A stretch of DNA of 64,000 bases from a virus (Duplodnaviria; Heunggongvirae; Uroviricota; Caudoviricetes), in IMG/VR virus record IMGVR_UViG_3300047483_000428, one strand, 5' to 3'. The translations under genes and the position numbers were made by a program. Position 1 is the stretch's first letter. The number at the start of each line of letters is the position of its first letter. Of this stretch, positions 17,150 through 64,000 are shown one piece after another. The notes below the pieces were generated by a model that had not been told where the DNA came from, searched no databases, and saw nothing but the letters and a program-made list of their open reading frames with translations.

Positions 17150-17154
17150 CATCT

Positions 17155-19702: not shown

Positions 19703-19747
19703 AGTGTTGTGACCCTTTCGTAAAACAACACAGTTATTTATAAGATA

Positions 19748-19837: not shown

Positions 19838-19840
19838 TTT

Positions 19841-21575: not shown

Positions 21576-21586
21576 TTTTTAACCTC

Positions 21587-21978: not shown

Positions 21979-21982
21979 AAAT

Positions 21983-22198: not shown

Positions 22199-22220
22199 GT
22201 AAGTTCTCCCCTCACACTAT

Positions 22221-22847: not shown

Positions 22848-23046
22848 ATGTTAGAAGGCCGAGTCGTGGAGACTTCTTATTCGCACATACACCATAATCA
22901 AATCCAAGTTCCCCGTCAAGAGGCAAAAACCATTTACATCCACAACTACAGTCTGGGTAATCTTGATTGTCGGCCCATCGTTTGACTTCTCCACCATAAT
23001 CAGTGTAATCAGATGGAAGGACTTTTATAAACGACATATCAATCAT
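22795..23046 (-). CDS. hypothetical Cys-containing small protein
   Basis: 83 aa with a CSCGCKW motif. Confidence 0.35.
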   Translation of the reverse strand: MIDMSFIKVLPSDYTDYGGEVKRWADNQDYPDCSCGCKWFLPLDGELGFDYGVCANKKSPRLGLLTFEHQTGKDCFEYDQNPR

Positions 23047-23064
23047 ATTCAGACCTTTTTATTT

Positions 23065-23141
23065 TGGTAGTCCCCCTCGGACTTGAACCGAGATATCCGT
23101 TCTTATGAGGAACGCTCATTCACCAATTATGATAGAGGACC
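23065..23141 (-). tRNA. tRNA with CAT anticodon, copy 4
   Basis: GGTCCTC-TA-TCAT-AATTGGTGA-ATGA-G-CGTTC-CTCATAA-GAACG-GATAT-CTCGG-TTCAAGT-CCGAG-GGGGACT-A-CCA. Confidence 0.7.
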
Positions 23142-23255
23142 GTAATTCTGTTCGGTTTGTCGCAGACTCCGAAAAACTGCTTTCAGTAACCTAGACGCAG
23201 AGCATCATCCCTGTAGGACCATTGTCCCGCTACCGCCATCGCATTACCTTCTAAA

Positions 23256-23332
23256 TGGTGCCCCCGGTGGGATTCGAACCCACACTGTAGAGATTTTAAG
23301 TCTCCTGCCTCCTGCCTTTGGGCTACGAGGGC
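23256..23332 (-). tRNA. type I tRNA with anticodon TAA (Leu-type anticodon on a short-variable-arm body)
   Basis: GCCCTCG-TA-GCC-...-GGC-A-GGAGA-CTTAAAA-TCTCT-ACAGT-GTGGG-TTCGAAT-CCCAC-CGGGGGC-A-CCA. Confidence 0.55.
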
Positions 23333-23452
23333 ATTTTATTACTTGTTCCGACACCAGCCCCCAAACCCGCCGTGTCAGTGACTACTTCCATATCCCAAAG
23401 AGAACAGAAAGGAAAAGGTTCTCAACGGTATACTAAGTATCTTTCCTAATAT

Positions 23453-23529
23453 TGGCGATTCCGGCAGGACTCGAACCTGCAACCCACAGCTTAGAAGGCT
23501 GTTGCTCTATCCAGTTGAGCTACGGAACC
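23453..23529 (-). tRNA. tRNA-Arg (anticodon TCT)
   Basis: GGTTCCG-TA-GCTC-AACTGGATA-GAGC-A-ACAGC-CTTCTAA-GCTGT-GGGTT-GCAGG-TTCGAGT-CCTGC-CGGAATC-G-CCA. Confidence 0.75.
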
Positions 23530-27973: not shown

Positions 27974-28002
27974 TGGTGATTCCTTTCTCATTACTGTTAC
28001 AC

Positions 28003-28029
28003 CATACAGTATGATTCTTACCTTGTCAA
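28003..28029 (-). promoter_or_regulatory. promoter-like motif copy upstream of the CCA-adding enzyme gene
   Basis: Plus strand reads catacagtatgattcttaccttgtcaa. Confidence 0.45.
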
Positions 28030-28060
28030 ATAAAAAAGAGGGTTTCCCCTCTTTATTTTT
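28030..28060. terminator. bidirectional rho-independent terminator
   Basis: Hairpin AAGAGGGTTTCCCCTCTT flanked by an A-run and a T-run. Confidence 0.6.
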
Positions 28061-28253
28061 GTTCCACAACTCGTATTTCTTGTTCGGCAATCATATACCA
28101 ATCAGGTGCGATTGCTTCTGGTGGCTCATTGAATGAGTTGATATGGTCACGATACTTGATGGCTTCTTCTATCGTATCAAACAAAGCATATTCTCGTTTT
28201 TGTCCCCAACCACGTTCTGATTCAATAGTGCAGACTTCGTATTTTACTTTCAT
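28053..28253 (-). CDS. hypothetical protein
   Basis: 66 aa; variant promoter motif at 28278..28310. Confidence 0.4.
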   Translation of the reverse strand: MKVKYEVCTIESERGWGQKREYALFDTIEEAIKYRDHINSFNEPPEAIAPDWYMIAEQEIRVVEQK

Positions 28254-32092: not shown

Positions 32093-33265
32093 TTACATTT
32101 TTGTTGTTGTGGACTCATATGTCCGATTATACTGATTATTTACCCTAATAAATGTGGTGCATTTACTGAGTTGTTTCAAGGTAGGTGCGCCAACATAAGT
32201 GCAAGTTGAACGTATTCCGCCAAGAATAGTTTGAATGGTATTGGATACATTTCCACGATACGGAACCAATACTTCTCTGCCTTCACTTGCCCGATAATCT
32301 TTGAGGCCACCAAAGTGTTTAGTGTTAGCAGCATCGCTACTCATACCATAGAACTGAACAAATTTCTTTTCTGCGATGATGGGTTGAAAACTTTCAAAAG
32401 TTTCTGGTGTGCCAGTGTGTTTGTATTCACCTGTGTTATACCATTTACTTATCACCTCGCCACCACCTTCGTCATGGCCAGCCAACATGCCACCTAGCAT
32501 TACAAAGTCAGCACCCCCTGCAAAAGCCTTGGCAACGTCCCCAGAACAAGAACAGCCCCCGTCAGCAATAATATGTCCACCAAGACCATGAGCCGCATCC
32601 GCGCACTCAATGATAGCCGAGAGTTGGGGATAACCGACACCAGTTTGTATCCGAGTGGTGCAGACGCTACCAGGACCAATCCCAACTTTAACAATGTCTG
32701 CTCCATTTAGAATCAATTCCTGTGTTTGGTCTGCGGTAACAACGTTTCCTGCGATGATAACGATGTTTGGATATATTTTGCGAATGTTTTTTACATGTTC
32801 AACAAAATGCTGACTGTATCCATTTGCAACATCAATACAAAGATATTTTAGATTATCACCAACTCTGGCATAAACCTGAACAAACTTGTCATAGTCTGCA
32901 TTACTGGTGCCAATACTCATAGCTACATGTTGAGTTCTACGTTCAACGTTTTGTGAAAAGAACTCAACGAGTTCATCCATCGAATATGTTTTTACCAAGC
33001 AAGTAAAAATGCTTTGGCTGGATAGAACGTCTGCCATTTCAAATGTTCCAACACCATCCATGTTTGCAGCCATGATGGGAACCCCCTTGTATTGAGAGTA
33101 GTTACGATCAAACACTTCATTCATGGTTTCGTTTGGACCAGAAACATAGTTTCTAAATGTATATGACCGTTCCAGACTTACATCTGAACGGCTTTTGAGT
33201 GTGCTTCGTTTTGGGCGAATTAGAACATCGCTGTAATCCAGCAATACTTCATTTTCTATGCGCAT
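32093..33265 (-). CDS. guaC: GMP reductase
   Basis: Near-colinear with bacterial GuaC: [105 protein letters not shown]. Confidence 0.85.
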
Positions 33266-48204: not shown

Positions 48205-48552
48205 TCAAGAACCTTTTTTCTTATCCCAATAATCTTTTGGCATATTTGTCCATTGCGTTGACCAGTAGAACACAATGAAATACAGGTTCAGTTGCGCGTG
48301 TGGGCAGTCATACCAAAACTTGTGAAGTCCAAAGTTTTCAAAACCCCAAATCTTACGCATCCAAGAGTCGTCTTTGAACTCTCGCATTGCTTGACGCATT
48401 TCTTTGTCAACCAGTCCAACCTTGAAATAGCACCCATACCAATCGGACCCAAGAGTCTTTTCGGTTTGATACCACTCAACGCCGAGTTCTCCCTTCCAAC
48501 AAAGTTTGAACTTCCACGGGTATTGTTTTACTTTTTCCATATCAGTCCCCAC
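48205..48552 (-). CDS. hypothetical Trp-rich protein
   Basis: 115 aa. Confidence 0.4.
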   Translation of the reverse strand: MGTDMEKVKQYPWKFKLCWKGELGVEWYQTEKTLGSDWYGCYFKVGLVDKEMRQAMREFKDDSWMRKIWGFENFGLHKFWYDCPHAQLNLYFIVFYWSTQWTNMPKDYWDKKKGS

Positions 48553-49552
48553 CTTTCAGAAGGAACTGATTGCTGATTGTCTTGAAGCTGAAACTTGGGT
48601 CTTCGTTGCACTTCCACACAAGACCTTCACGAACCTTATGGGCGATACTTGGACCTTCGGCAATAGCAAGACCTTGTTCAACCGAAGCAGGGGATTTCCA
48701 GTCATTACCAAGAACAGGAGCATGGTCAAAGTATTTTGCATTGCAGACCATGCGCCGAGTCTTTGGTTCTAGGTATTCATGCTTCTGAATGTCGAAGACG
48801 TCGAACACGAAGAACTTGTGTTCAGTGAACCCTTCGCGGTTTCCTTGAATACCTGGGCCCATGACTTCACCTTGAACAGCGTAACCGTTCGGAATGCGAT
48901 CACCGATCTTGAGAGCCATTGCAACAAGGGTGTTGTCTCGGTTCTCGTCATTGATCTTGAGTTCAAGGTTCCTACTGCAAACGCGAACTTCGCCTTCCCA
49001 ACGGAAGATAGTGCAACTGGTTCCGTCCAGTTTCATAGTTACTTCGTAAGTAACATCACCCTTATCCTGAATCTCTTGGAAACAGTTTTGGATACGTTCT
49101 TGGTCAGTTTTAGGAATCAGGCTGGTAGGAAACAGACCGCGAACTTGACCAGCAAGTTGAGCAGGGATTTCTGGTTCCCACTTTTGAATACCAAGGATTT
49201 CGGTTACATCAACTCCTTCTTCTGGAAGAGTAAAGAACAGTTTTCCTTTCACACCTTCCGCATCAAGTTTCAAAAGAAGACCTTGTGAAACTTGCCCACG
49301 CAGTTTGACAGTGCGAAGCCGTTCACCTTTCACCCCATTGTATTCACGAGGTTCTTGTCCTTTTGACAGGAACGCAGCAAGTTCAGTTGGCACCCAAGAG
49401 TCGATTTCAAGGTAAACGGCAAGGTCACCAACTTGAAACTCGTCTTTCTTGACCACAACTTTCCAGCCATCAACTGTGGCCACAACAATAGCATCAGCAC
49501 CTTCAATGGGCTGAATGTCGGCAATCCGACGAATAGAGGCTAGTTTACGCAT
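48542..49552 (-). CDS. ATP-dependent RNA ligase (nucleotidyltransferase superfamily)
   Basis: Motif I KxDG as KLDGTSCTIF. Start placed at MRKLASIRR (ATGA-coupled to the upstream ORF). Confidence 0.5.
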   Translation of the reverse strand: MRKLASIRRIADIQPIEGADAIVVATVDGWKVVVKKDEFQVGDLAVYLEIDSWVPTELAAFLSKGQEPREYNGVKGERLRTVKLRGQVSQGLLLKLDAEGVKGKLFFTLPEEGVDVTEILGIQKWEPEIPAQLAGQVRGLFPTSLIPKTDQERIQNCFQEIQDKGDVTYEVTMKLDGTSCTIFRWEGEVRVCSRNLELKINDENRDNTLVAMALKIGDRIPNGYAVQGEVMGPGIQGNREGFTEHKFFVFDVFDIQKHEYLEPKTRRMVCNAKYFDHAPVLGNDWKSPASVEQGLAIAEGPSIAHKVREGLVWKCNEDPSFSFKTISNQFLLKGGD

Positions 49553-49911
49553 TATTTTTTCTCCCGAATAAAGGCAGTGAGTGGAGTTCCGTATCCACAT
49601 TGTAAGTCCGAATGAAGATTTCCACCGTTGATGGAGTCTGTCAGATAGTCCATTTCAGTATAGCCATACCGATCAATGCCATTGCCAATCCCAACGTATT
49701 CACCGTCAGCATCAAAGGCAGAGTATCCGTAACTGTCAAAACCTTCACTGTCGTAGTCGCCAAACATGGTTTTTTCATCATATTCGATTCCATCTTCATA
49801 GACTTCTTGATTCCATTCTGCGGGGACTTCGCCATAGCAGTTGTATTTGAACATTTCCCATCCGCTTTCATTGGCGTGAGGGCAGAGAGGTGAATATTTT
49901 CCAGTGCTCAT
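49552..49911 (-). CDS. hypothetical acidic protein
   Basis: 119 aa. Confidence 0.4.
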   Translation of the reverse strand: MSTGKYSPLCPHANESGWEMFKYNCYGEVPAEWNQEVYEDGIEYDEKTMFGDYDSEGFDSYGYSAFDADGEYVGIGNGIDRYGYTEMDYLTDSINGGNLHSDLQCGYGTPLTAFIREKK

Positions 49912-51853: not shown

Positions 51854-52255
51854 CTACCGATGCAGAGAGAACTGTTTCATATATTCGGCTTCTTCTTCGG
51901 TGTAAACAAACACCCAAGCACAAGTAACTTCACAGCTTACAAAAACATCACCATAAAAGTTACGCCAAGGGTAGGTAGGATCAACCGTCATCCCACTGTT
52001 TGGAATGACACTGGTGATTTGATTGATGACATCCAGAGGTTCATGCAGAACCAGTGTGACGCCAAAAGACCGATCTTCTTTCCATTGTGCAACCGCATTG
52101 AATAGTGCAGCAGTTTTGAAATCCAAGGGCGCAAGTTTCGACGATTCCACAAATTCGTCAAAGTCAGATTGCGCGTGTGCAGCTTGCGCCATAGCCTTGC
52201 CAGGATTCATGTCCTGAATGTCTTTGCGCATGATAATATACAGTTTCGGTTCCAT
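51854..52255 (-). CDS. hypothetical protein
   Basis: 133 aa. Confidence 0.45.
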   Translation of the reverse strand: MEPKLYIIMRKDIQDMNPGKAMAQAAHAQSDFDEFVESSKLAPLDFKTAALFNAVAQWKEDRSFGVTLVLHEPLDVINQITSVIPNSGMTVDPTYPWRNFYGDVFVSCEVTCAWVFVYTEEEAEYMKQFSLHR

Positions 52256-53391: not shown

Positions 53392-53466
53392 AAGAAAACT
53401 CCAGTTAGGTTACGGCTACATAATAGCATCTAACTGGAGTCTTGTCAAGTAAAAGTATTTTTATTT

Positions 53467-54531
53467 TTATGGTGTGGGGTTACTTGGTGGTGTCGCATTA
53501 GCCGAGTTGGCGTCAGCTTCGTCCAACACTCTGTTGAATTCTCGTAAACGCTTTATAACAGACTGGAAATCAACAATCGTTGTCCAACGGTCAATGAAGT
53601 ATGTAAGCGCACTTTCAACTCGTCCAAACGCATTTAGAACTTGTATGAGAACACCAAATGTAACCAACTGTGCGAAATAGCTTGGTGCCAGCACAACAAG
53701 AGCCACGTTTCCTGCTATCATACCAAATGCGGTTTGCCATACACCAAATCCCATATACCAGTTGAACAAACGATAATAGTTACGTTTGATTGAAGCAAAC
53801 ATAGGGAATAGGTCTGCGGTCAAACGATGGTTGAAATCATCTTCGGAATGAACTAACTTCTTTCTAAACTGTGCTTCTACCACTTGGTTGTTATATTCTA
53901 ACCCAGGAAGTTTTATACCCAACAAGAATGACAGCAATGTTCCGCCCAAGGACATGGTAAGAGCAACCCACACCAAGAACCCAGGAATTATTTGGTCGCC
54001 CCACACTGGCAGTCCTTCGCTCAGATTCCACAAAACTGGCAAGAAAGCTGCAAGAACAAAAATCTTATTCACAAATCCAGCAAATAGACCTTGTAGTGTT
54101 TTTCCAAAGACCATCAAGTCTTCTTGTATACGCTGTGAGCCACCTTCAATCTTTGCCGTTGATTTTTCCCAACGCTTTAGATAATACATCGTGTTTGCTT
54201 CTCTCCATGCAAACGTGTAACGCTGTGTTTGCCACGTTGAATAAACTGCGATTGGAGTGTATAGCACAATGATTTCCAAGAAACTGGGAACAATCATTTC
54301 GGAGTCGATTCTTAGCATTAGAAAGTCAAAAAATCTTCCTGTATCCCAACCCCATAACAATTCCCAAAAGGTTTCCTCTTGTAGCGTTTGTATGGCATCA
54401 TAGAACTCTCTGTTCCACGCATTATAATATACGAGAATTTCAACGCTATACCAACCAACGAATAGCAACCATGCTAACATTAGCCAAGAATATAACGCGG
54501 TTTCTCTGTTCCAAAAGAAACTTTTTAGCAT
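53467..54531 (-). CDS. polytopic inner-membrane protein (at least 6 TM), transporter-like
   Basis: 354 aa with multiple hydrophobic helices and a C-terminal Pro/Ser/Asn-rich tail; first gene of the membrane module. Confidence 0.5.
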   Translation of the reverse strand: MLKSFFWNRETALYSWLMLAWLLFVGWYSVEILVYYNAWNREFYDAIQTLQEETFWELLWGWDTGRFFDFLMLRIDSEMIVPSFLEIIVLYTPIAVYSTWQTQRYTFAWREANTMYYLKRWEKSTAKIEGGSQRIQEDLMVFGKTLQGLFAGFVNKIFVLAAFLPVLWNLSEGLPVWGDQIIPGFLVWVALTMSLGGTLLSFLLGIKLPGLEYNNQVVEAQFRKKLVHSEDDFNHRLTADLFPMFASIKRNYYRLFNWYMGFGVWQTAFGMIAGNVALVVLAPSYFAQLVTFGVLIQVLNAFGRVESALTYFIDRWTTIVDFQSVIKRLREFNRVLDEADANSANATPPSNPTP

Positions 54532-54542
54532 TTTTTATCTCC

Positions 54543-55406
54543 CTACTCTAATCCACTTATTGGGTTAGCAGCAGTAAAACCCCAAAAGTTTCTATAATTT
54601 GTTGCGATGTTAAGTAATCCTGGCTTAACTTTAAAGTCATCTGGCTTTAGCCAATACATATTCGAATTTGGTATTTGAATGAATAGTTGTCTTACGTCTG
54701 CATCTGTGACGCCCAAATCTTCAAGTAACGATAACAAGCTACTGGCAACTCTCAACGTTGATGATTCGACTTGCGACTGGTTCATTCCTCCACCAGCGCC
54801 TTCTGGGGTTGCAGGAGAATGTATACCAAACCATACATCGCCAATCAGATAGCGAACATCACCAGCCAAGAATAGCAGACCACAAGCACTGGCGCATATT
54901 GAGTTTCCCTCCATACCAGAGTCTTTTGGTGCTATCAATCCTGGTTGGTATATATTTTTCCCCATGTCATTATAAACTGGGGTTGCACGGACAACCGTTA
55001 CTACGTCCCGTATTTTGAAATGTGCAGCCAGACATGAACCATCTGCAAGACTTCCGCCAGGGCTTTCTAAAATAACAGTGAAATGGTCTGGTAACAACGG
55101 GACGATTTTTTGACAATCGCCTTCTTTTATGCCACCAGTTAATGTATACAAGTTGTCATCAATCTGTTTGAACTCTAACCCAACTTCTTCTACCGCAGTA
55201 ACTTCTTTTGAGGGATTGTTTAGTTCAGTGTATAACTCGTTGTATGCGTTATATGACATTCTTATTTGATTTCCAGCTAACAACATTATGATGATTATTA
55301 GCGAGAGCATTAATGGCTGTGAAATCAGCCTACGTATCGCTCTATATATCCACAATCCCTCTATTGATTCAAATATAAAGAGTCTAACCTTCTTCCATAT
55401 ATTCAT
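54543..55406 (-). CDS. membrane-anchored ClpP/crotonase-fold serine protease (NfeD/SppA S49-like)
   Basis: N-terminal TM (LMLSLIIIIMLLAG) then ILESPGGSLADGSCLAAHF...GNSICASACGLLFLAGD, the SPGG and Ser-x-x-x-Cys/Ala pattern of S49/NfeD. Confidence 0.55.
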   Translation of the reverse strand: MNIWKKVRLFIFESIEGLWIYRAIRRLISQPLMLSLIIIIMLLAGNQIRMSYNAYNELYTELNNPSKEVTAVEEVGLEFKQIDDNLYTLTGGIKEGDCQKIVPLLPDHFTVILESPGGSLADGSCLAAHFKIRDVVTVVRATPVYNDMGKNIYQPGLIAPKDSGMEGNSICASACGLLFLAGDVRYLIGDVWFGIHSPATPEGAGGGMNQSQVESSTLRVASSLLSLLEDLGVTDADVRQLFIQIPNSNMYWLKPDDFKVKPGLLNIATNYRNFWGFTAANPISGLE

Positions 55407-55439
55407 ATTGGTTTCCCCTATATTGTATTGTTATTTTAG

Positions 55440-55700
55440 TTACTGTGCGGGTGTGTCTGGTTGTTGTTTTGATTGTTCCGCAACTGCGGCATCATATTCT
55501 TGACGTGTCATACATTGTGACCTTGAATAGACAGTCCATTCTATGTCAATTTGCGTCTTTTGATTTTCTAGCATTTGGGCATGTGCTTTGCAATCTTCCA
55601 AAGACGTATACGGTATGTGTTGAATAATCGGTGCTCCGAGTTGCACATTGAACACCGATACTATAAAGTAAACCACTACTAGGACTGCATTGTATTCCAT
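55440..55700 (-). CDS. small single-pass membrane protein
   Basis: 86 aa with an N-terminal TM. Confidence 0.4.
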   Translation of the reverse strand: MEYNAVLVVVYFIVSVFNVQLGAPIIQHIPYTSLEDCKAHAQMLENQKTQIDIEWTVYSRSQCMTRQEYDAAVAEQSKQQPDTPAQ

Positions 55701-55701
55701 A

Positions 55702-56187
55702 TCAATTTCCTTTTAAATTGTCTGGATCAGTAACAACAAAGTCATAGGTGTTATATTCTCCACCCTGCGTTTGCCCTTTGCCTACTCCAGTTCCATCTTG
55801 GTCTGCACCTTCTTGACCAATTTTTTGGCCTTTGCCTTCTTCTTGTGCTTTTGCTGCTTCATCCATCGCCTTTTTGTTTTGCTCAGTATTTGGAATACTA
55901 TACAGTCTAGGCTTTTCAGTTTCAGTCGGCCATGCCCAAACATAAATCACATCACCATCAACAATGTGATTTATATAAAAACTGTCATTTGGAATTGGAG
56001 TAACAACGGGAAATCCTAAAAGGTTCTGTAATGTGAGATAACTTGTAATGACACTAACGAATGTTACTGGTATGATTATAAAAGTAATCAGGAAATTTTT
56101 ATAGTTTCTTATCGCTACCCACAATACAACAATTGATAGGAACATAAGGGATATTAAAATAGGTAACAATTCGCTGCTATATATCAT
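55702..56187 (-). CDS. membrane protein with Gly/Gln-rich C-terminal tail
   Basis: Two to three N-terminal TMs; C-terminal QEEGKGQKIGQEGADQDGTGVGKGQTQGG. Confidence 0.45.
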   Translation of the reverse strand: MIYSSELLPILISLMFLSIVVLWVAIRNYKNFLITFIIIPVTFVSVITSYLTLQNLLGFPVVTPIPNDSFYINHIVDGDVIYVWAWPTETEKPRLYSIPNTEQNKKAMDEAAKAQEEGKGQKIGQEGADQDGTGVGKGQTQGGEYNTYDFVVTDPDNLKGN

Positions 56188-56193
56188 TTTATT

Positions 56194-56907
56194 TTACTCT
56201 ACATTTATGAAACTTGACCCTGCGGTATATTTTTTATTAGATTTTTGCAATCCACCACTGACAAACGTGTCAGATATAAGTGAACCACTAATTCTGGAAT
56301 TGGATTTTATTACTATATTTTCAGTAGGAAATCTAAAATTGCTTGCCTTTCCATTTTCATCTAAATCGAATTGTAGGATTGGAACGATTTGGCCTTTATC
56401 TTTATATCTGTGTTCTGAAGTATATACTTCTTGATACGGATTCACACGTATCATTTTAAAAGACAATGGAGAATATGGGTCTGGATTATTTTTATTTTCA
56501 TACTTATTGAAAACGTGGGCCATAACTGTATAAGTTCCTGGGATAATTCCACGCATTGTAGTAACTTCCCGATTGGTTTTTACAATAGTCTCTGTCCCAT
56601 CTGGGGATTCATACGTATCGTTACTTTTACCAAGATCGTCTCTTTCAAGATTGAGTAAACCGCCATCTTTACTCAAGAAACTTACGGTTATTCCATTTGG
56701 GTCTCTTACCCAAATATCAATATCGTCATACGATTCTGAGTCCCATTCGATGGCGAATAGGTATTCAGCTTTTGATGGTATATCATTTTTTTTCGCTTGC
56801 GGATTGATTAAAATAAATGCAACCGTGAACAAAAATACAAATCCCACCAACAAGTTGAATAACAAATCATTAAATGCTATGCCACTTCCGTAGTGTGATC
56901 TTTTCAT
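56194..56907 (-). CDS. MotB/ExbD/TolR-like stator subunit (single TM with conserved Asp, periplasmic domain of unknown fold)
   Basis: N-terminal GIAFNDLLFNLLVGFVFLFTVAFIL parallels the ExbD/TolR/MotB TM (FIDVMLVLLIIF / ADLMTLLMAFF), with Asp at the cytoplasmic end of the helix. Sits immediately downstream of the MotA-like gene. Confidence 0.5.
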   Translation of the reverse strand: MKRSHYGSGIAFNDLLFNLLVGFVFLFTVAFILINPQAKKNDIPSKAEYLFAIEWDSESYDDIDIWVRDPNGITVSFLSKDGGLLNLERDDLGKSNDTYESPDGTETIVKTNREVTTMRGIIPGTYTVMAHVFNKYENKNNPDPYSPLSFKMIRVNPYQEVYTSEHRYKDKGQIVPILQFDLDENGKASNFRFPTENIVIKSNSRISGSLISDTFVSGGLQKSNKKYTAGSSFINVE

Positions 56908-56908
56908 A

Positions 56909-57382
56909 TCATTGGTTGCCTGACTCTAAATTGACAAGTTGTATCTTTAATACTTGACTACATACCAACCCGACAAGAGTAGTATATAGTGCAGTGCTCA
57001 TACCAAGCGCCATTGCGACAAGTGCAGATTTTAGTGTTTCTGGATTAGAAGCATCTATTTCAGCAAACGAACCGCCTAGCATCATAATAAAACCAGCAAC
57101 GGTTCCAATCATACCAAGTGTCAACATAGTTTCACTTATGAACCATGCAATTTCGGTTCTTTCTTCTACTATTTTGTTTTTGGAATTTTCGTAAGACAAT
57201 TTTCCAACAAACAAACTTGCAATTATATACAACGCTATAATCAAGACGCTTATTTTAGTTGTATCCTTGGTGTAAATTTCCCAAGTCCATCCAAAGATGT
57301 ATGCAATGTATCCCATAACTAATGATAAACAAAAAACTAGCCACCATTTTAGAACTTTAGACATTAATACTTCTCCACACAT
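56909..57382 (-). CDS. MotA/TolQ/ExbB-family proton-channel protein (short form, 4 TM)
   Basis: C-terminal TMs carry the family signature TMLTLGMIGTVAGFIMMLGG...ALVAMALGMSTALYTTLVGLVCS (cf. MotA GMIGTV.GL...LG.GIAVAL.TT.YG). Confidence 0.6.
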   Translation of the reverse strand: MCGEVLMSKVLKWWLVFCLSLVMGYIAYIFGWTWEIYTKDTTKISVLIIALYIIASLFVGKLSYENSKNKIVEERTEIAWFISETMLTLGMIGTVAGFIMMLGGSFAEIDASNPETLKSALVAMALGMSTALYTTLVGLVCSQVLKIQLVNLESGNQ

Positions 57383-57525
57383 TCACACAAACTAATTCAT
57401 TTATTTATTTATCTATTTTGTCTGTATATAACGAATAATCAAAATCCACTTTTGTGGTATTACTGCCACAATAAAAAAAGAACAGTGAGTAATCACTGTT
57501 CTTTTATTTTGATTTATTTTTACTG

Positions 57526-58161
57526 TTAGTATGTTTCTACAACCACGTCAGCAATACCATGTTGGACTGCTTCTTCTGGTGTTAGCCAGTGGTCTGTTTT
57601 TGGCGCAAGCAAGTGCTTACGAATATACTTTTCCGTTTTGCCAGTGCATTTGATGTAGTGTTCAAGCAACTTGTCGTTTGTCCAATCCATGTGTTTGCGG
57701 CTTTCAACCATATCATGGTATTGGCCACGAGTGCCACCACTAAATTCATGGCTCATAACAGCGGTGTTTTGTGTCAGGTAACGGTGTCCCTTTTCTCCTG
57801 ACATCATGAGCATCACACCACAACTTGCAATGCTTCCCATTCCATAGGTATATACTGGAATACGACTTTGTTTGATAATGTCAATCAGATGCATACAACT
57901 GTCAACGTAACCACCAGGGCTGTTGATATATAGATGAATCACTTCTGGTGCTCTATCGGCTGGCATCAAGTTGTATTCCATAATCATTTTTACTAGTGGC
58001 ATACAATTTTCTTGATTGAACTCTTTGTCCATAAACAACACACCATTGTCGCGCAAGTATTCACCTAGCTGTTTTGGTGGACTTGGTGGCGCTGGCGGTG
58101 GTGGTGGAGGGGTTTGTGGCGCTGGTGTTTCTTTTGGAACGGGGATGACTTTGTTTTTCAT
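57526..58161 (-). CDS. ClpP-like serine protease with Pro-rich N-terminal linker
   Basis: Contains YINSPGGYVDSCMHLIDII...GMGSIASCGVMLMMSG...MSHEFSGG, ClpP-like Ser/His regions. The N-terminus is PAPQTPPPPPPAPPSPP. Confidence 0.7.
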   Translation of the reverse strand: MKNKVIPVPKETPAPQTPPPPPPAPPSPPKQLGEYLRDNGVLFMDKEFNQENCMPLVKMIMEYNLMPADRAPEVIHLYINSPGGYVDSCMHLIDIIKQSRIPVYTYGMGSIASCGVMLMMSGEKGHRYLTQNTAVMSHEFSGGTRGQYHDMVESRKHMDWTNDKLLEHYIKCTGKTEKYIRKHLLAPKTDHWLTPEEAVQHGIADVVVETY

Positions 58162-58178
58162 TTTATGTTTCTTTCTTA

Positions 58179-58445
58179 TTAGTCGTCTTCATCATCAGTA
58201 TTTAGTTCGGTCCATTCTGTTTCAATGTGACATTCAGCGAAAAAGGTGCCTTCCACTCCTTCTTTTCCGTATACAAAAATACTTGGGCCATCTATGTCTT
58301 TTGACATGAACACGTGATGAAACCAAAGGTCGCCCGTGGTTTCTAGGCTTTCGCATAAATAGTCAAGTTCATTGCGAACCTTTGCGACTTGTTCAGCAGT
58401 CGGAATGATTTCGCCTTCCCATACAATGTCATAATTTTCAATCAT
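58179..58445 (-). CDS. hypothetical acidic protein
   Basis: 88 aa. Confidence 0.4.
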   Translation of the reverse strand: MIENYDIVWEGEIIPTAEQVAKVRNELDYLCESLETTGDLWFHHVFMSKDIDGPSIFVYGKEGVEGTFFAECHIETEWTELNTDDEDD

Positions 58446-58666
58446 CTACATTTCTCAATCATCTGACGTGCCATTGCAGTATCATTTCTTTCTTCCAATT
58501 CTTCGTCTATCATAGAAAGTATTAGCAATTCACGAAGCACAATTACTTCTTTTACGGTTTCTTCTGGGAGTGAGCGAATCCATCGCTCTAACTCGTCTAC
58601 TGTTTCCAAACTCCACATCTTGTCTAATAGGCGGCACTGACTTTCTGACATTCCTTGTAGGATCAC
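58442..58666 (-). CDS. hypothetical protein
   Basis: 74 aa. Confidence 0.4.
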   Translation of the reverse strand: MILQGMSESQCRLLDKMWSLETVDELERWIRSLPEETVKEVIVLRELLILSMIDEELEERNDTAMARQMIEKCR

Positions 58667-58823
58667 TTTTTATTCCCTTTATCGTTTGCGATAGCACGAA
58701 GTGTTTTACTAAGTTTTATCTTGTCTTTTTTGGATAGTTTTTCGTTTTGTTCGTCCAAGCAGTCTTCGCAGAAGGGCGAACCATATTCTGCACAATCTTT
58801 GCAATCTTTTGGTATATCGCTCA
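58664..58823 (-). CDS. small Cys-rich zinc-ribbon-like protein (53 aa)
   Basis: Hand translation gives MSDIPKDCKDCAEYGSPFCEDCLDEQNEKLSKKDKIKLSKTLRAIANDKGNKK, with an AAGGAGA RBS. Confidence 0.3.
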
Positions 58824-58871
58824 TGTAGATTCTCCTTCGGAATAATATACTCTACAAATGCCACGATGTCA

Positions 58872-58902
58872 ACAAAAAAGGCGACCGAAGTCGCCTTTTT
58901 TG
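58872..58902. terminator. bidirectional rho-independent terminator after the SPFH gene
   Basis: Hairpin GGCGACCGAAGTCGCC with a flanking A6 run and T6 run. Confidence 0.65.
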
Positions 58903-58914
58903 ATTCTTGTGTGG

Positions 58915-60312
58915 TTACTGCTTTACAGGGTTTCCGATAGTAGGATCAACACTCAGTTGCTTTGCAGAGTTTAGCATCATCAGTTGCATAAACTGGTCTA
59001 CGGTTCCAAGTGCATTTCCCGCAGTCCCATCGCTACCACCACCAGCAATCACAGTGGAAGGAACATTGATTTTAGATGCGGCGTCTGCCCATACACGTTG
59101 TGCTTCAACCCAAGCATCAAGTTTCTGTTGTAGCGCACCGTCAGCTTCAAGGATAGCTTGTTTGGCGTAGGCTTCTGCATCGGCAGCAACAGTTACAGAT
59201 TGTGCGTCAACCTTTGCACGTTCCAGATTGATTTCCGAGGTTTCTTGTGCAATTCGGGCTTCCTCGCGGATACGTTCAGCTTCAATTAGAGCAAGTTTTT
59301 TCGTGGTTTCGGCGTTTGTAGTCTTTTCAATCTGTTCCACTTTTGCTTCTGCTTGACGCTTGGCAATGTCAGTTTCACCTTGTTGAATAGCCAGCAGACG
59401 CTGTTCTTCTTGCTCAAGGCGTTGTTCACGAGCAACTACACGACGAGACGCAGCTTTCTTACGTTCACCAATTTGACGCTCATATTCATCATCTGGGTCA
59501 ATGTTTTCAAGAATTGCAGATGATACAACAACACCGATTTCCGCAAAGTCATGTGGGGTTCGGATGTCATTGCCGCTTGCGTCTGTCACTTTTTCCATCA
59601 TAACACGACGAACTTCTGTGTCGCCAACTTCTGAAGTGTCGGCAGCAACATCGCTACTTGATGGAGCGGCACGACTAGGAATTACGCCACCCGCTTGGTT
59701 GAAAGACACTTGACGAACTTGCGCACGACCCTTTTCAACAGTATCTTTGAACTCGCTCTTGAATTGGTCCCGCTTACCACCAGAGTAGTATTCTTCCATG
59801 GTAAACATGTTGGAAACCGAGTCAAGCGATGCAGTAACGGCAGGTTTCAGAGTAGTGCTAATCAGACGCTCAGGACTACGGAAGGTTCGTGCCATCGTCA
59901 AGAATTGTTCTTGATCTTGTGGGATTGCAAAACGAGTGGTCTGAGTAACATCACCTGTCCAGTTGTCTGCTAGGCGAACACGATATGGACCCGTGACAGA
60001 ACTGCCATCCGCTTCAATATCAATCGTGTTTGCGACTGTAATGAAGTGAGGCCATGCGGTAGAAGTTCCCCAACCGACAAAAAACCAACCTGTTTCGCAA
60101 ACTGCGGTTTCTGTTCCAAAAATACTCCGAGTGTGTTGGCAGTATCCAGCGTCATTGTAACTTACGGCCCCAAGACCGATAATTGCAACACCAAAAACGG
60201 CGACCGCAGATGAAACGATTGTTTTTACTTTTCGTAGTTCAGGCACCAGAGGCACAGCTTTGATTGCGATTGCCGCAATAATAAAGACGATGCCTAGAAT
60301 AAGTCCAGTCAT
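58915..60312 (-). CDS. SPFH/Band-7 (flotillin/YqiK-like) membrane protein
   Basis: N-terminal TM, an SPFH domain, then a long Ala/Glu-rich coiled coil (EAKVEQIEKT...ERAKVDAQSVTVAADAEAYAKQAILEADGALQQKL) typical of flotillin/HflK/C. Confidence 0.75.
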   Translation of the reverse strand: MTGLILGIVFIIAAIAIKAVPLVPELRKVKTIVSSAVAVFGVAIIGLGAVSYNDAGYCQHTRSIFGTETAVCETGWFFVGWGTSTAWPHFITVANTIDIEADGSSVTGPYRVRLADNWTGDVTQTTRFAIPQDQEQFLTMARTFRSPERLISTTLKPAVTASLDSVSNMFTMEEYYSGGKRDQFKSEFKDTVEKGRAQVRQVSFNQAGGVIPSRAAPSSSDVAADTSEVGDTEVRRVMMEKVTDASGNDIRTPHDFAEIGVVVSSAILENIDPDDEYERQIGERKKAASRRVVAREQRLEQEEQRLLAIQQGETDIAKRQAEAKVEQIEKTTNAETTKKLALIEAERIREEARIAQETSEINLERAKVDAQSVTVAADAEAYAKQAILEADGALQQKLDAWVEAQRVWADAASKINVPSTVIAGGGSDGTAGNALGTVDQFMQLMMLNSAKQLSVDPTIGNPVKQ

Positions 60313-60342
60313 TATTTTATCCTTTGTTAGATTGTGTGTGAG

Positions 60343-60489
60343 TTAGTTTTGTTCTGAACCGTAGTTCATAAGCGTTTCGTGGTTTTCAATAACGTGCCAT
60401 ACCATGCGTTCAATAGCTTTGCTAACAAACCACAGTCCACCAAACATAAGCACGTTTGGGATTACATAGTATACAACTACATCTACCAT
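60343..60489 (-). CDS. small membrane protein (48 aa) co-transcribed with the SPFH gene
   Basis: Hand translation gives MVDVVVYYVIPNVLMFGGLWFVSKAIERMVWHVIENHETLMNYGSEQN, with an AAGGAAA RBS downstream of promoter motif 60536..60568. Confidence 0.3.
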   Translation of the reverse strand: MVDVVVYYVIPNVLMFGGLWFVSKAIERMVWHVIENHETLMNYGSEQN

Positions 60490-60535
60490 GTCGTTTTCCT
60501 TCGTATTGAGTTTGCACTATTGCTCACTCTTATGT

Positions 60536-60568
60536 GTTATATATAGTATAGATTCGTGTCAATGTCAA
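60536..60568 (-). promoter_or_regulatory. promoter-like motif copy heading the SPFH operon
   Basis: Plus strand reads atatatagtatagattcgtgtcaatgtcaa. Confidence 0.5.
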
Positions 60569-60757: not shown

Positions 60758-61096
60758 TTACGCAAAGTTCACCGAAACTCCACATCCGCAGCCAGATTGT
60801 GCATTTGGATTGAAAAGTTCAATTTTACTTCCAGTGATATCGCTGACATAATCAACAGTCGTTCCGATAAGATACATTAGGCTGTGACTGTCAACATACA
60901 GAGTGAAGTTATCGTATTCTTGAACCTCATCGCCAAACATATGGTCCTTGACTTCATCGAATATTTCCCAATGGTATTGGAAACCCGCGCATCCACCACC
61001 GATGATGCCAAACTTCACCAGTTTTCCAGATGCGATATTAGTAAAGTGATTGATTGCTTTGTCGGTTAGTGTCACAACACTCATTTTTTTCTCCAT
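60758..61096 (-). CDS. HesB/IscA-family iron-sulfur cluster insertion protein
   Basis: C-terminal CGCGVSVNFA matches the conserved Cys-Gly-Cys of A-type carriers; an N-terminal Cys lies in GGGCAGFQY. Confidence 0.65.
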   Translation of the reverse strand: MEKKMSVVTLTDKAINHFTNIASGKLVKFGIIGGGCAGFQYHWEIFDEVKDHMFGDEVQEYDNFTLYVDSHSLMYLIGTTVDYVSDITGSKIELFNPNAQSGCGCGVSVNFA

Positions 61097-61578
61097 TTTG
61101 TGATAGATAGTCCGCTATCTATTATTTCGTTATTGTGAATATAGAATTGGCTTGTTATTTTTTCTTTTGGTAAAAACACGTCACAATCATATATTCCACT
61201 AATATTACTTATCCACAATTCATCTATAATATCAAGGCAGTCTTCAATAAGCGAAGCGCCGCCGATGACCCATGTAATGTATTCCGAGTATCTAGTTTCT
61301 ATGATTTCCTTGATGATTCTAGAAGGATTGCCACTATATACTCCATGGGGTGCGTTCTTCCATTCATTTGGATTCATGGAAGACGATATTACAAAGTTCA
61401 GACGGTTGGATAGTGGTTTATATGGAAGGCTATCCCATGTCTTTCTTCCCATTACCACCGAATGACCATTGGTGCAATCTTTGAACCATTTCAAGTCGGC
61501 AGAGTTACGGGGCCATGGCAAGTCGCCGTTCTTTCCTATGCCCCAATTGTCGTCCATTGCAAATATTGCGTTTATCAT
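61081..61578 (-). CDS. frd: dihydrofolate reductase
   Basis: N-terminal MINAIFAMDDNWGIGKNGDLPWP with the DHFR signature, and LNFVISSS downstream; 165 aa. Confidence 0.85.
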   Translation of the reverse strand: MINAIFAMDDNWGIGKNGDLPWPRNSADLKWFKDCTNGHSVVMGRKTWDSLPYKPLSNRLNFVISSSMNPNEWKNAPHGVYSGNPSRIIKEIIETRYSEYITWVIGGASLIEDCLDIIDELWISNISGIYDCDVFLPKEKITSQFYIHNNEIIDSGLSITKWRKK

Positions 61579-62330
61579 GATTTTGGTATAAATCTCTCGT
61601 AGTTGGCAAACTCTTCATCAAGAAACCCATCTGGTTTTACTAACTTTATCTTGTTTGAAACCATAAAGCTATTGAAATATCTTCTGAGTTGTTCAATGTT
61701 GTCAATTGATGATTCTTTTGATGGTCCCCGATGAACCCTGCTTTCCATACTTTCTATGTAAGTTGGAATGAAGCCAGATTTCTTCACATCTGCTATTGGG
61801 TCAGATGTCAAATCTTCATAATAAATCACTTTATTGTATACGATACCAAGTTCATTACTTCTAAACTTTCGATAGTTGTTTAGACAGTCAAGTAGTGTTC
61901 GGTGAAATATATCAATAGGAACGGATTTTTTGTCAACTGTGGCGTCTTTATCATAGAACCAAACATCTTTTGTTCGGGCTAACGCCAGACTCATAACGGT
62001 GTCAAACACATTTTTACGAACAAGCACAACAGTGTGCCAATCAAGAGACATATACCTATCCCAAAGATTATTTCCCATACTGTGAAGATGAAACATGTTG
62101 AACATGTGATTTTTGACAAGACAATGGTTTGATTTGGTAAACGCCTCTACACGCTCTTCCGCATATTTTGGAAATTCATCACGGGAAATCTTCTCTCTCG
62201 CGGTAATCCAGTCAATATTGAATGGTTCATACTGTATCTCAAAGTCTGGATATTCTCTGATGTATCGTTCAAGCAACCCGGCATAATATGTGCTGCCGGA
62301 TCGCGGATGTGTAAGTAATTGTATTCTCAT
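61575..62330 (-). CDS. sulfotransferase-like protein (paralog B of 12421..13152)
   Basis: Start at MRIQLLTHPRSGSTYY. Shares PRxGSTY, EPF and VVLVRKNVFDTVMSLALA blocks with paralog A. ATGA-coupled to the S8 protease gene. Confidence 0.45.
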   Translation of the reverse strand: MRIQLLTHPRSGSTYYAGLLERYIREYPDFEIQYEPFNIDWITAREKISRDEFPKYAEERVEAFTKSNHCLVKNHMFNMFHLHSMGNNLWDRYMSLDWHTVVLVRKNVFDTVMSLALARTKDVWFYDKDATVDKKSVPIDIFHRTLLDCLNNYRKFRSNELGIVYNKVIYYEDLTSDPIADVKKSGFIPTYIESMESRVHRGPSKESSIDNIEQLRRYFNSFMVSNKIKLVKPDGFLDEEFANYERFIPKS

Positions 62331-62331
62331 A

Positions 62332-64000
62332 TTAGAACCTTTGTGTAAGGGTAAAGCCAATCTGTGGCGCGGTTTCGCCAGCAATACCCATGTAATTTTC
62401 GCGAACTTCTGCAAACATAGAAACGTTAGTCATTGGTGCTACGTCTACATTGTAAAACACACCAAGATTTACTTCACGACTATTATTCGCAAGAGATTCA
62501 GTTGCAGAAGCAGATGATACCACACCTTCAGCACTTACGGAAGATGCATATTCCATTGACACTTCCCCAGATTGAATGGAAACTGGAAGTGCCGCCACAA
62601 CTCCAAAGTGTCCGTTTTTCGTGTTGAATTTTGCACCAATGCTTGCTGTGTTGCTGATTATAGTTCCAGCACTTTTCATCATAGAGTTATCTCCAACATT
62701 CAGGTCAGTCGCACCAAATCCAATACTCCCAAACAGTGAGCCGTTTCCAGTTTGAATTTCTGGATTGAAACTTACATAAGTTGTAGTCGCACCAGTTACA
62801 TTCATGATTGGACTGTTCGCCGTGTTTCCAAGGAATGAACCATCTTCTTTCATCATCCCGAATGTCATAAATCCTGCGTTATATGATAGACCATAGTTTG
62901 TTCCATCAGTGTTTGTAGATACAGCAACATTGCCGATATTGATATTTAGTCCTTTTGTATAACCCATGTAATTGTCTGCATTTGAGTTATACGATGCTGC
63001 CAGAACTGGGTTCACCATGCGAGTATCAGTAGCAACGTTCAGTTTGTTGCCATCAACATAAAAGTTTCGATCATAGTCATCAACGACCATCATACTGGAC
63101 AACGAAGCCATATTCATCCCTGCAACAGAAAGTTGCCCATCAAGCGAAGCGGTTGCCCCATCAATCCGACCAGTCGTAGGAATACCAATTGCACCCTGTG
63201 GAGACGTTGCGTTATCAAGGTCCATGACGCCTTGACCGTGAATATTTACATTATAGCCAGCAAACGATTTGTCCGCAGTTTCCATGAGTAGTTTTACAAT
63301 ATTATCGCCTGTCATGTATGGCCACATTTGATGAACTAGTGCTACGCCACCAGAAATAGCGGGAGCAGCCATAGATGTTCCACTCAGAGCACGATAGTCC
63401 CCACCATTATCGGTTGAAGTGACCCAAGAACCAGGAGCCATCAAATAATAGTCGCTAACACGATAGGTATTGTTACACTGATTAGTTACGGAATTGTAAT
63501 CATAGCACATTGTTCCAGCACGGTTTGAGTAAGAAGCAATATTATTTGTTCCAAGGTCAAACGAACCAGCAATGATTACCCGACCGTCAAGTGCAAGGTT
63601 GCCATTTTCATCAGTGATAGTGGCATAGTGAGCAGGAAACGCTGGAAATGCCAACCCTTGGTTACCAGCAGCCACAACAAGAACAGTGTCATTTCCACTC
63701 ATCGCACTGATAACAGGAGCAGTGAAGTTGTTGCTATCTAGCACTTGGTTGTAACCAAGAGATTGGTATGGGCTGTAGGTGCTATAGTAAAAACCATCGC
63801 CAATAGACACTACACTATTACGGTATGTAGAATCCATACTCATTTCGGCACTTACGTTTACTACATCTGCGCCATTTGATACTGCCCATGCGATACCATT
63901 ACCAAGTTGGTCAAGTTCAATATATCCGCTATCATGACCAATTTTGCCAATCAACAGGTCAGCGTCAGGCGCAACACCAGTCATGCCAACGCCATCTAAT
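62332..64000 (-). CDS. S8 subtilisin-family serine protease with beta-barrel-like C-terminal domain (partial; N-terminus beyond window end)
   Basis: Asn oxyanion VVAAGNQG and catalytic Ser in LSGTSMAAPAISGGVALV. The C-terminal 250 aa are Gly/Ser/Asn/Thr-rich with alternating hydrophobics ending ...IGFTLTQRF (aromatic terminus, autotransporter/OMP-like). Confidence 0.7.
   Translation of the reverse strand, partial: LDGVGMTGVAPDADLLIGKIGHDSGYIELDQLGNGIAWAVSNGADVVNVSAEMSMDSTYRNSVVSIGDGFYYSTYSPYQSLGYNQVLDSNNFTAPVISAMSGNDTVLVVAAGNQGLAFPAFPAHYATITDENGNLALDGRVIIAGSFDLGTNNIASYSNRAGTMCYDYNSVTNQCNNTYRVSDYYLMAPGSWVTSTDNGGDYRALSGTSMAAPAISGGVALVHQMWPYMTGDNIVKLLMETADKSFAGYNVNIHGQGVMDLDNATSPQGAIGIPTTGRIDGATASLDGQLSVAGMNMASLSSMMVVDDYDRNFYVDGNKLNVATDTRMVNPVLAASYNSNADNYMGYTKGLNINIGNVAVSTNTDGTNYGLSYNAGFMTFGMMKEDGSFLGNTANSPIMNVTGATTTYVSFNPEIQTGNGSLFGSIGFGATDLNVGDNSMMKSAGTIISNTASIGAKFNTKNGHFGVVAALPVSIQSGEVSMEYASSVSAEGVVSSASATESLANNSREVNLGVFYNVDVAPMTNVSMFAEVRENYMGIAGETAPQIGFTLTQRF

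Follow-up and report, generated by a model that had tools for sequence, protein, structure and literature searches.

The stretch of DNA analysed here, called the window below, comprises 64,000 nucleotides of an uncultured tailed phage (Caudoviricetes; IMG/VR record IMGVR_UViG_3300047483_000428). We describe a block of membrane-protein and protease genes on its minus strand, between positions 53,467 and 60,568. A first-pass annotation had presented this block as one ten-gene module joining a MotA/MotB-like stator pair, NfeD- and ClpP-like proteases and an SPFH protein. We find that the conserved unit is not this ten-gene block; it is a six-gene operon (57364..53467) together with a nearby ClpP gene (57526-58161). 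The operon holds two sub-modules: a triad, made up of a MotA/ExbB-like A subunit, a B subunit and a third protein with two transmembrane (TM) helices, and a set made up of the small protein p86, a membrane-anchored ClpP-fold protein (the S49-like protein below) and an SbmA/BacA-family transporter. We hold this anatomy of the block with high confidence. Our preferred interpretation, put forward tentatively and rated at somewhat less than an even chance, is a proton-driven 5:2-type envelope motor that would work with periplasm-to-cytoplasm peptide uptake and degradation during infection.

Genes and transcription units of the block

Protein families were searched in Pfam, PHROGs, PADLOC and NCBIfam, and structures by sequence profiles against the PDB and by fold search. 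The B subunit (56194-56907), the S49-like protein (54543-55406) and the small proteins of the block matched no family in these four collections. All the open reading frames (ORFs) named in the first-pass annotation lie on the minus strand where it had placed them; its count did not hold, as 12 ORFs lie between 60489 and 53467.

Two strong hairpin terminators and an internal promoter divide the block into at least three transcription units. The first contains p48 and the SPFH gene. The promoter already proposed upstream of it (60536..60568, minus strand) can be read directly from the sequence as TTGACA-17-TATATA, and we judge it plausible although a consensus scanner did not list it, the last base of its -10 element being A. 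The strong bidirectional terminator described inside the block is real: the unit closes at a hairpin (58873..58902) with a 13-bp stem and flanking A- and T-runs (-19.4 kcal/mol, z -4.63). Directly after this hairpin, a strong sigma-70-like promoter (58844..58872, minus strand; TTGACA-17-TATATT, 11/12 match) begins the second unit, which contains p53, p74, p88 and ClpP. Between ClpP and the A-subunit gene lies another terminator hairpin of the same quality (57476..57505; -16.1 kcal/mol, z -5.91, followed by U7), which the first pass had missed.

The third unit is the six-gene operon, in the order A subunit, B subunit, third protein, p86, S49-like protein and SbmA-like transporter. Its intergenic gaps do not exceed 33 nucleotides, and the stop codon of the A-subunit gene overlaps the start codon of the B-subunit gene. 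Its 3' limit is set by a strong promoter found by the promoter scan (53420..53448, minus strand; TTGACA-17-TATTAT), at which the next downstream unit starts.

The motor-like triad and its cellular relatives

The first gene of the operon (56909..57364, minus strand) encodes a minimal MotA/ExbB/TolQ-family protein of 151 residues, with four TM helices and no cytoplasmic domain. It matches PF01618 (MotA_ExbB) at 30 bits against a cut-off of 22.9, in agreement with the family named in the first pass for the ORF 56909-57382. The start most likely lies at 57364 within this ORF: GGAG stands 8 nucleotides upstream, an identical 151-residue protein is on record, and all homologs have about 150 residues. 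Our search returned 1,177 homologs of about this length, and nearly all of those listed carry PF01618. By hydropathy, the protein has four hydrophobic helices, a loop of about 20 residues at the site of the cytoplasmic domain of MotA, ExbB and TolQ, and an end about 12 residues past TM4. The family motifs G-x-x-G-T-x-x-G of TM3 and A-L-x-T-T-x-x-G of TM4 are present as GMIGTVAGF and ALYTTLVGL, and GMxGTVxGF and GMSTALYTTLxG are invariant in 33 homologs. These motifs align with the same motifs of MotA 8gqy, the best sequence match among solved structures, at a family-profile score that is not significant (E 0.65). Weak profile matches to ZorA, PomA and TolQ were also obtained. To our knowledge, this is the smallest A subunit known.

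The B subunit (56194..56907, minus strand) consists of a single TM helix followed by a TerD-like beta-sandwich, as judged from alignment and model. Its helix carries Asp14, which is invariant in 43 of 43 sequences, including that of a Rhizobium phage at 34% identity, and which is kept in the chromosomal versions too. Asp14 lies 1-3 residues into the helix, near the cytoplasmic end, and this is also its placement in ExbD, TolR and MotB. The model is confident (predicted local distance difference test, pLDDT, 82.8), and TerD is the fold that it matches best; the BFVD fold library gave weak, uninformative matches only. The beta-sandwich carries an invariant acidic motif (D62, D64, D90, D91). We found no match to PF02472 (ExbD/TolR) at E <= 1, no MotB plug or OmpA-like peptidoglycan-binding domain in Pfam or NCBIfam, and, with the family profile against PDB sequences, noise without ExbD or TolR. 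The single N-terminal TM helix, the Asp and the classic A-then-B gene order of the MotB/ExbD-like partner described in the first pass are therefore confirmed, and its identity as MotB or ExbD/TolR is not: Pfam, NCBIfam and PADLOC gave no match, and the beta-sandwich is a different fold. Homology to TerD at the sequence level was rejected as well, as PF02342 gave no match and hhalign against a verified TerD (293 bits) returned a probability of 0.2%.

The third protein (55702..56187, minus strand), recognized by its conserved position and by homology, has two TM helices, the second of which is followed by a GYP motif. It also has a small domain, and its tail, rich in Gly, Gln and Glu, ends in GGEYxxYDF. 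Homologs are found in Rhizobium phages and bacterial chromosomes. The triad as a family is not represented in Pfam. Judged from their sequences, the A and B subunits show the defining features of proton-driven 5:2 motors, with a B subunit that is neither MotB nor ExbD/TolR, and we consider it fairly probable that they form a working motor.

The ExbB-ExbD-TonB and TolQ-TolR-TolA systems share with the phage triad a PF01618 A subunit whose gene directly precedes that of a B subunit with one TM helix and an Asp close to the cytoplasmic end of this helix, a third membrane-anchored protein encoded alongside, and a non-flagellar genomic context. They differ in that the phage A subunit has four TM helices and no cytoplasmic domain, its similarity being confined to the TM3/TM4 hairpin, in that the phage B subunit bears a TerD-like beta-sandwich and no ExbD/TolR domain, and in that the third protein has two TM helices and no TonB- or TolA-like domains. 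With MotA-MotB and PomA-PomB, the phage pair shares a four-TM A subunit, the motA-then-motB order with overlapping stop and start codons, and the Asp in the B helix. However, it lacks the torque-generating cytoplasmic domain, the MotB plug and the OmpA-like domain, and no flagellar genes lie nearby.

A relationship with the anti-phage system Zorya, raised in the first pass, was not supported. The phage genes share with ZorA-ZorB an A/B gene pair, a setting of phage-host conflict, and weak ZorA profile matches that cover the TM hairpin only and fall far below the cut-off of the ZorA family models (30 bits vs 500). ZorA has a coiled-coil tail of roughly 70 nm (PMC11946911); the phage pair has no such tail, lacks the peptidoglycan-binding domain of ZorB, and is accompanied by neither ZorC/ZorD nor another effector. 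Identity with a PADLOC defence system was also rejected, as the nine other proteins gave nothing beside these ZorA matches of the A subunit. The likeness to TerD (2qz7, 2kxt) extends to acidic clusters in the beta-sandwich that are compatible with calcium binding, whereas TerD is soluble and cytoplasmic, the phage domain is tethered by a motor-type TM helix, and no other ter genes are present. The system resembles Ton/Tol-type motors, yet it does not belong to MotB, ExbD/TolR, Zorya, TerD or the SPFH-NfeD pairs.

These likenesses bear on a rival explanation, that of superinfection exclusion or envelope guarding. The motor would sense or resist the perturbation of the envelope that another phage, a colicin or an antimicrobial peptide causes, while the SbmA-like importer and the proteases would clear membrane-active peptides, the infected cell being protected by a Ter- or Zorya-like logic. 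BacA/SbmA-type uptake protects rhizobia from host peptides, which speaks for such a role, as do the weak ZorA-family matches, the TerD-like fold of the B subunit, and the SPFH membrane-scaffold cassette inserted alongside. It has also been proposed that Ter components of jumbo phages act against superinfection (PMC7824862). However, the hallmarks of ZorA, ZorB and ZorC/D are missing and no nuclease effector lies nearby, the TerD likeness is at the level of fold only, and the chromosomal triad is found among housekeeping genes and not in a defence island. We regard this explanation as distinctly unlikely.

Chromosomal copies of the triad occur on 780-820 kb contigs of uncultured marine Gammaproteobacteria of low guanine-plus-cytosine (GC) content, at a fixed position between fumC and acnA (for example L120, 9268-11017, and L109, 9274-11039) in a neighborhood with lysS, purB, hflD, mnmA and aceA. 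The triad is also found in a proteobacterium of GC 0.58, beside maf, yggS and queH. Its place among chromosomal housekeeping genes indicates a cellular system captured by phages. The chromosomal A-subunit homolog matches PF01618 at 42.4 bits. Cellular A subunits have 180-247 residues against 151 in the phage, and those of the marine Gammaproteobacteria (234-247 residues) contain a cytoplasmic insert. Phages captured the triad from this cellular system of marine bacteria, trimming the cytoplasmic loop of the A subunit.

The loss of this loop, together with the shared TM hairpin motifs, could fit another explanation, in which the truncated A subunit and its partner would mix or compete with host ExbBD, TolQR or ZorAB, so that TonB-dependent uptake or receptors would be switched off or a Zorya-type defence neutralized. 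However, the phage keeps a complete, co-evolving triad with an invariant Asp, which suggests a working complex and not a poison subunit, and mixed complexes are not an obvious prospect at so low a similarity to ExbB, TolQ and ZorA. Such interference therefore appears very improbable.

The B-subunit family comprises 1,879 clusters at 50% identity, and a protein identical to the B subunit of the window is present on metagenomic contigs of up to 246 kb. Among isolated phages, the triad was found in Rhizobium phages only, among them P10VF, RL38J1 and RHph_I46, and its members are annotated there as hypothetical proteins. Our literature searches, which covered 5:2 motors, Zorya, jumbo phages and viral auxiliary genes, found no description of this system, nor of a phage MotA/ExbB module, a phage SbmA, or TerD combined with MotA. 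A survey of MotAB relatives reports that non-flagellar members bear diverse periplasmic appendages of unknown nature (PMC12505986), and a B subunit with a beta-sandwich fits this picture.

Linkage with an SbmA-type transporter and two ClpP-fold proteins

The last gene of the operon (53467..54531, minus strand) had been described as encoding a polytopic membrane protein, which is correct, and its family had been missed. The product is a short inner-membrane transporter of 354 residues (PF05992, 7e-78; profile positions 3-314 of 315) that aligns with residues 86-395 of E. coli SbmA (7p34; 2e-57). Like SbmA, it is transmembrane-only and has no ATPase domain; unlike E. coli SbmA, it lacks the first 85 residues or so, and it falls below both NCBIfam equivalog cut-offs (NF008306 and NF009036; SbmA and PRK12369 models; 240 bits vs 492 and 288 vs 385). 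On its sequence, it is a member of the SbmA/BacA family and not an ortholog-level match. It is the most conserved gene of the module (70-87% identity), and such genes are nearly absent elsewhere in isolated phages (4 of 50,697 records). The phage form is nearly always paired with the S49-like protein and p86; we know of no such pairing for cellular SbmA.

A second group of phage SbmA-like proteins (L229-L253), about 35% identical to that of the window, mostly stands alone. In 13 well-flanked loci it has neither the triad nor the S49-like gene within 4 kb, and in phages of the L079 type it follows the triad.

The S49-like protein (54543..55406, minus strand; 287 residues, fold model and alignment) is a membrane-anchored ClpP-fold protein that is probably periplasmic. 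Its 397 homologs of the same length all possess an N-terminal TM helix. Ser173 (in C-A-S-A-C), His196 (in G-I-H-x-P) and four Cys are invariant, and the Ser, as the putative nucleophile of a ClpP/crotonase fold, and the His occupy ClpP-like positions. The four Cys suggest a periplasmic, disulfide-bonded domain. The first pass had called this protein an S49/NfeD-like protease. The ClpP fold and the membrane anchor, both shared with SppA and NfeD, stand; family membership does not, as PF01343, PF25145 and PF01957 gave no match at E <= 1 and the profile found nothing among PDB sequences. The fold is closer to ClpP than to that of SppA or NfeD. It also differs from SppA, NfeD and STOPP in that its partner is a transporter and that no SPFH gene neighbors it in any relative locus. 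Upstream of it lies p86 (55440..55700, minus strand), a small protein with two Cys and an N-terminal anchor by hydropathy, which accompanies the S49-like/SbmA-like pair.

For linkage, we fetched 80 viral loci and 39 loci from cellular genome assemblies anchored on the B subunit, 42 anchored on the S49-like protein, and 80 anchored on the SbmA-like transporter. Neighbors were counted within 4 kb, in loci with at least 4 kb on both sides (39 viral and 24 cellular for the B subunit, 31 for the S49-like protein, 49 for the transporter). The A and B genes are adjacent in all 80 viral loci (median gap 13 nucleotides) and in all 39 cellular-assembly loci, and the S49-like and SbmA-like genes in 42 of 42. 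Around the viral B subunit (n=39), we found the A subunit in 39 loci, the third gene in 37, directly after the B-subunit gene, the SbmA-like gene in 15, an IscA-like gene in 10, the S49-like gene and ClpP in 7 each, and SPFH in none. The S49-like gene (n=31) is accompanied by the SbmA-like gene in 31, p86 in 28 (upstream), the triad in 11 and ClpP in 4, and the SbmA-like gene (n=49) by the S49-like gene in 36, p86 in 26, the triad in 21 and ClpP in 8. Around the cellular B subunit (n=24), the A subunit was present 24 times, and the SbmA-like gene, the S49-like gene and ClpP not once. The link of the triad with the transporter set is specific to phages.

The two sub-modules and ClpP are kept together through at least four gene orders: that of the window; S49-like, SbmA-like, A, B, third, ClpP; that of L079, with the triad, small lipoprotein-like genes and the SbmA-like gene but no S49-like gene; and that of L169, where an inverted triad lies next to ClpP, S49-like and SbmA-like genes. 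In L053, a plus-strand island flanked by minus-strand genes consists of exactly six genes (S49-like, SbmA-like, A, B and third genes, with ClpP last), and no capsid genes lie in its vicinity. In the closest relative, L013 (ClpP 96% and SbmA-like 87% identical), a clamp loader and other genes separate ClpP from the A-subunit gene.

This distribution can also be read as two or three independent accessory systems that share a variable region and have no mechanistic coupling. The triad would then perform an envelope function of its own, taken over from the host, such as outer-membrane maintenance of the Tol kind; the S49-like and SbmA-like proteins would act as a separate transporter set, and ClpP would be a general protease. 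The triad stands alone in 24 of 24 well-flanked chromosomal loci and in most phage loci, some jumbo phages keep the sub-modules about 30 kb from each other (L014 vs L170), the window has a terminator between ClpP and the operon, and the region is mosaic, as L013 illustrates. On the other hand, proximity survives at least four rearrangements, one of them the strand-bounded island of six genes, the SbmA-like gene occurs within 4 kb of the triad in 15 of 39 loci although it is very rare in phages, and the six genes of the window are packed as a single operon. We consider independence somewhat unlikely, and functional coupling of the two sub-modules an even proposition.

Several other genes were observed beside these loci. 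In L079 (11249-11915), the third gene is separated from a divergent SbmA-like gene by three tandem small paralogous ORFs of 70-78 residues, which have lipoprotein-type signal sequences and conserved Cys and replace p86 and the S49-like gene. In two lineages (L010, 12213-13604; L177, 7813-9186), an M17 leucyl aminopeptidase gene (394 bits) follows the SbmA-like gene at a distance of 0.3-1.3 kb; the window encodes no M17 aminopeptidase. A role in iron uptake was considered, since an IscA-like gene often lies beside the triad and FTR1 and ferredoxin genes are present in L010; the association is confined to certain lineages, and no TonB or TonB-dependent receptor was seen.

ClpP itself (57526..58161, minus strand) is a regular, soluble ClpP-family serine protease with an N-terminal poly-Pro stretch (PF00574, 5.2e-33, 115 bits), as the first pass had concluded. 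Its Ser (GSIASCG), His (MSHE) and Asp (TDHWLT) align with the catalytic triad of the solved ClpP 3q7h. No ClpX-like gene was seen in the regions of the window that were examined. Three small ORFs without family matches precede ClpP in its unit, all on the minus strand. The first gene, p53 (58663..58824), encodes a CxxC...CxxC motif typical of a small zinc ribbon and could be an adaptor-like factor of ClpP or ClpX; p74 (58442..58666) is a small soluble protein and p88 (58179..58445) a small acidic one. In relatives, a Cpn10/GroES-like gene lies immediately upstream of ClpP (L013, 6430-6738; L010, 5278-5598), scoring just under the Pfam cut-off (20.2 and 16.9 bits vs 21.1), where the window has the unrelated p88.

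The remaining two genes of the block form the SPFH cassette. Its first gene, p48 (60343..60489, minus strand; ORF and hydropathy), encodes a single-TM protein of 48 residues. The second (58915..60312, minus strand) encodes an SPFH/Band_7 (flotillin-like) protein of 465 residues with two N-terminal TM helices (PF01145, 1.3e-11, 45.3 bits against a cut-off of 23.6), which is a full-length member of phrog_11908 (4e-101). Both had been correctly recognized in the first pass. The closest SPFH homolog (58% identity) is from Alishewanella phage Slicko01, and others occur in Alishewanella, Sinorhizobium, Pseudomonas, Vibrio and Aeromonas phages. The two homolog contexts inspected (Slicko01 and phiN3) contain no module, and p48 is not conserved in other phages carrying this SPFH. 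Together with the module, SPFH and p48 were found only in near-identical contigs of the window's own phage (L008/L009); no match was found in the relatives' loci anchored on the B subunit, the S49-like protein or the transporter, including L013.

The cassette, with its own promoter and terminator, is therefore a separate, lineage-specific and recently inserted membrane cassette outside the conserved module, and the idea of a single stator, NfeD and SPFH module had to be abandoned. The proposed SPFH-NfeD pairing fell with it, as the S49-like gene never adjoins SPFH in relatives and has the SbmA-like gene as its constant neighbor. An IscA/HesB-like Fe-S assembly gene (60758..61096, minus strand; PF01521, 1.6e-13) lies upstream of the block, and in many relatives an IscA-like gene is directly upstream of the A-subunit gene, which indicates that SPFH and ClpP were inserted between them here.

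Genomic setting and possible functions

The block lies in the accessory region of a large uncultured phage, as indicated by 23 tRNA genes, many accessory enzymes, and contigs of up to 246 kb. The T5-like relationship hinted at in the first pass found no support, as a nucleotide search of the block against 50,697 deposited phage records gave no match. Among the enzymes of the window are a radical SAM protein (3392-4522), a C5 DNA methylase (10882-11775), an ornithine/diaminopimelate decarboxylase (18575-19702), a CCA-adding enzyme with an HD domain (26723-28090), a GMP reductase/IMPDH-like protein (32093-33265), an RNA ligase (48542-49600), a PTH2-like peptidyl-tRNA hydrolase (51854-52255), and a dihydrofolate reductase (DHFR; 61081-61578).

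This setting bears on the possibility of a virion-assembly role, in which ClpP would be a prohead maturation protease and SPFH and the membrane proteins assembly scaffolds. The best PHROG matches of ClpP are indeed annotated as head maturation protease (phrog_94, 1.3e-27). However, the protein covers the full cellular ClpP profile, its gene lies in an accessory region with DHFR, IscA, tRNA and RNA ligase genes, and in the relatives inspected in detail its neighbors are the triad or the S49-like gene, and neither portal nor capsid genes lie close by. None of the genes of the block is a recognized structural gene. Nor do they match a characterised system, as the first-pass annotation had already stated. 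We reject the prohead-protease reading of ClpP on its genomic context, and consider a role in virion assembly extremely improbable.

Other features of the window lie apart from the block. A dense tRNA array extends over 8092-23529, in which ARAGORN counts 23 genes and Rfam 21, and their calls differ in places. ARAGORN alone reports a tRNA-Tyr(ATA) of 97 nucleotides (21588-21684) and a tRNA-Met (23065-23141), Rfam alone shows weak tRNA-like matches at 12267-12337 and 14206-14278, and both report a tRNA-Ser with the unusual anticodon ACT (19748-19837). The Rfam scan of the window returned tRNAs only. A plus-strand ORF of 412 residues (26741-27979) runs antisense to the CCA-adding enzyme gene on the minus strand; this stretch is the most GC-rich of the window and one of only three with a positive AT skew, and the ORF is probably a compositional artefact and not a gene. 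A gene for a large subtilisin-like S8 peptidase (62332-63984), one more protease of this neighborhood, lies three genes upstream of the block and runs off the window (888 residues in L008, 1909-4575); a weakly sulfotransferase-like gene (61575-62330) follows it.

Our preferred reading assigns a part to each protein of the conserved unit. By analogy with ExbB-ExbD-TonB and TolQ-TolR-TolA, the A subunit, the B subunit and the third protein would form a proton-driven 5:2-type motor, in which a dimer of the beta-sandwich would be the fixed periplasmic part and the third protein an output or adaptor riding on the A pentamer. The other sub-module would combine p86, a membrane-anchored Ser/His hydrolase of ClpP fold in the periplasm, and a short peptide importer of the SbmA type driven by proton coupling. 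Periplasmic or envelope peptides and proteins would be cut, the products imported, and these degraded by cytoplasmic ClpP and, in some relatives, the M17 aminopeptidase. With both sub-modules expressed from the accessory region, the proton-motive force (PMF) of the host would be used for envelope work and for the supply of peptides and amino acids. The uptake of microcin J25 by E. coli requires FhuA, TonB-ExbBD and SbmA, so both kinds of machine can serve one import route. The recurring M17 aminopeptidase and the accessory-metabolic neighborhood agree with a supply function, which by itself we consider doubtful.

A bolder version of this reading makes the triad a PMF-driven substitute for an ATP-dependent unfoldase, one that would hand envelope proteins over to the ClpP-fold protease anchored in the membrane on the periplasmic side. 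Since ATP is absent from the periplasm, the pulling would fall to a motor of the MotA/ExbB type; the products would enter through the SbmA-like transporter and be finished by cytoplasmic ClpP, with the M17 aminopeptidase in relatives. We consider this version quite improbable.

Several points weigh against the preferred interpretation of a motor working with peptide uptake and degradation. The membership of the A subunit in the MotA family is remote, the B subunit has no sequence similarity to MotB, ExbD, TolR or TerD, and neither a TonB- or TolA-like protein nor an outer-membrane partner was found. No third catalytic residue stands out clearly in the S49-like protein, whose model is of moderate quality (pLDDT 70). 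The occurrence of the triad without the SbmA-like, S49-like or ClpP genes in all well-flanked chromosomal loci and about 60% of phage loci means that any coupling is no more than facultative, and some of the linkage may reflect synteny by inheritance; the wide separation of the sub-modules in several jumbo phages and the terminator before the operon count in the same direction. We know of no experiment on any member of these families, and a scavenging of peptides by them is a conjecture, if a plausible one.

The first pass had missed the most informative link, that with an SbmA-type importer, and likewise the triad's cellular origin, and the resulting picture is less exotic than the stator, NfeD and SPFH module first proposed. 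It is of interest for the fields of envelope motors and of phage auxiliary functions. At three genes and about 550 codons, the triad is small and well suited to structural work and heterologous tests. The family is also common: it is found in phages of aquatic habitats and on the chromosomes of marine Gammaproteobacteria that are themselves abundant. If our reading is correct, the triad would represent a further branch of these motors, with a new kind of B subunit, based on a beta-sandwich of the calcium-binding type, and a new third subunit. If the unfoldase version were true, phages would have assembled, from a cellular motor, a PMF-powered line for proteolysis and recycling across the envelope. 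The linkage of the triad with an importer, a periplasmic ClpP-fold protein and ClpP points to exploitation of the host PMF for envelope proteolysis or peptide uptake, which would constitute a new class of auxiliary function.

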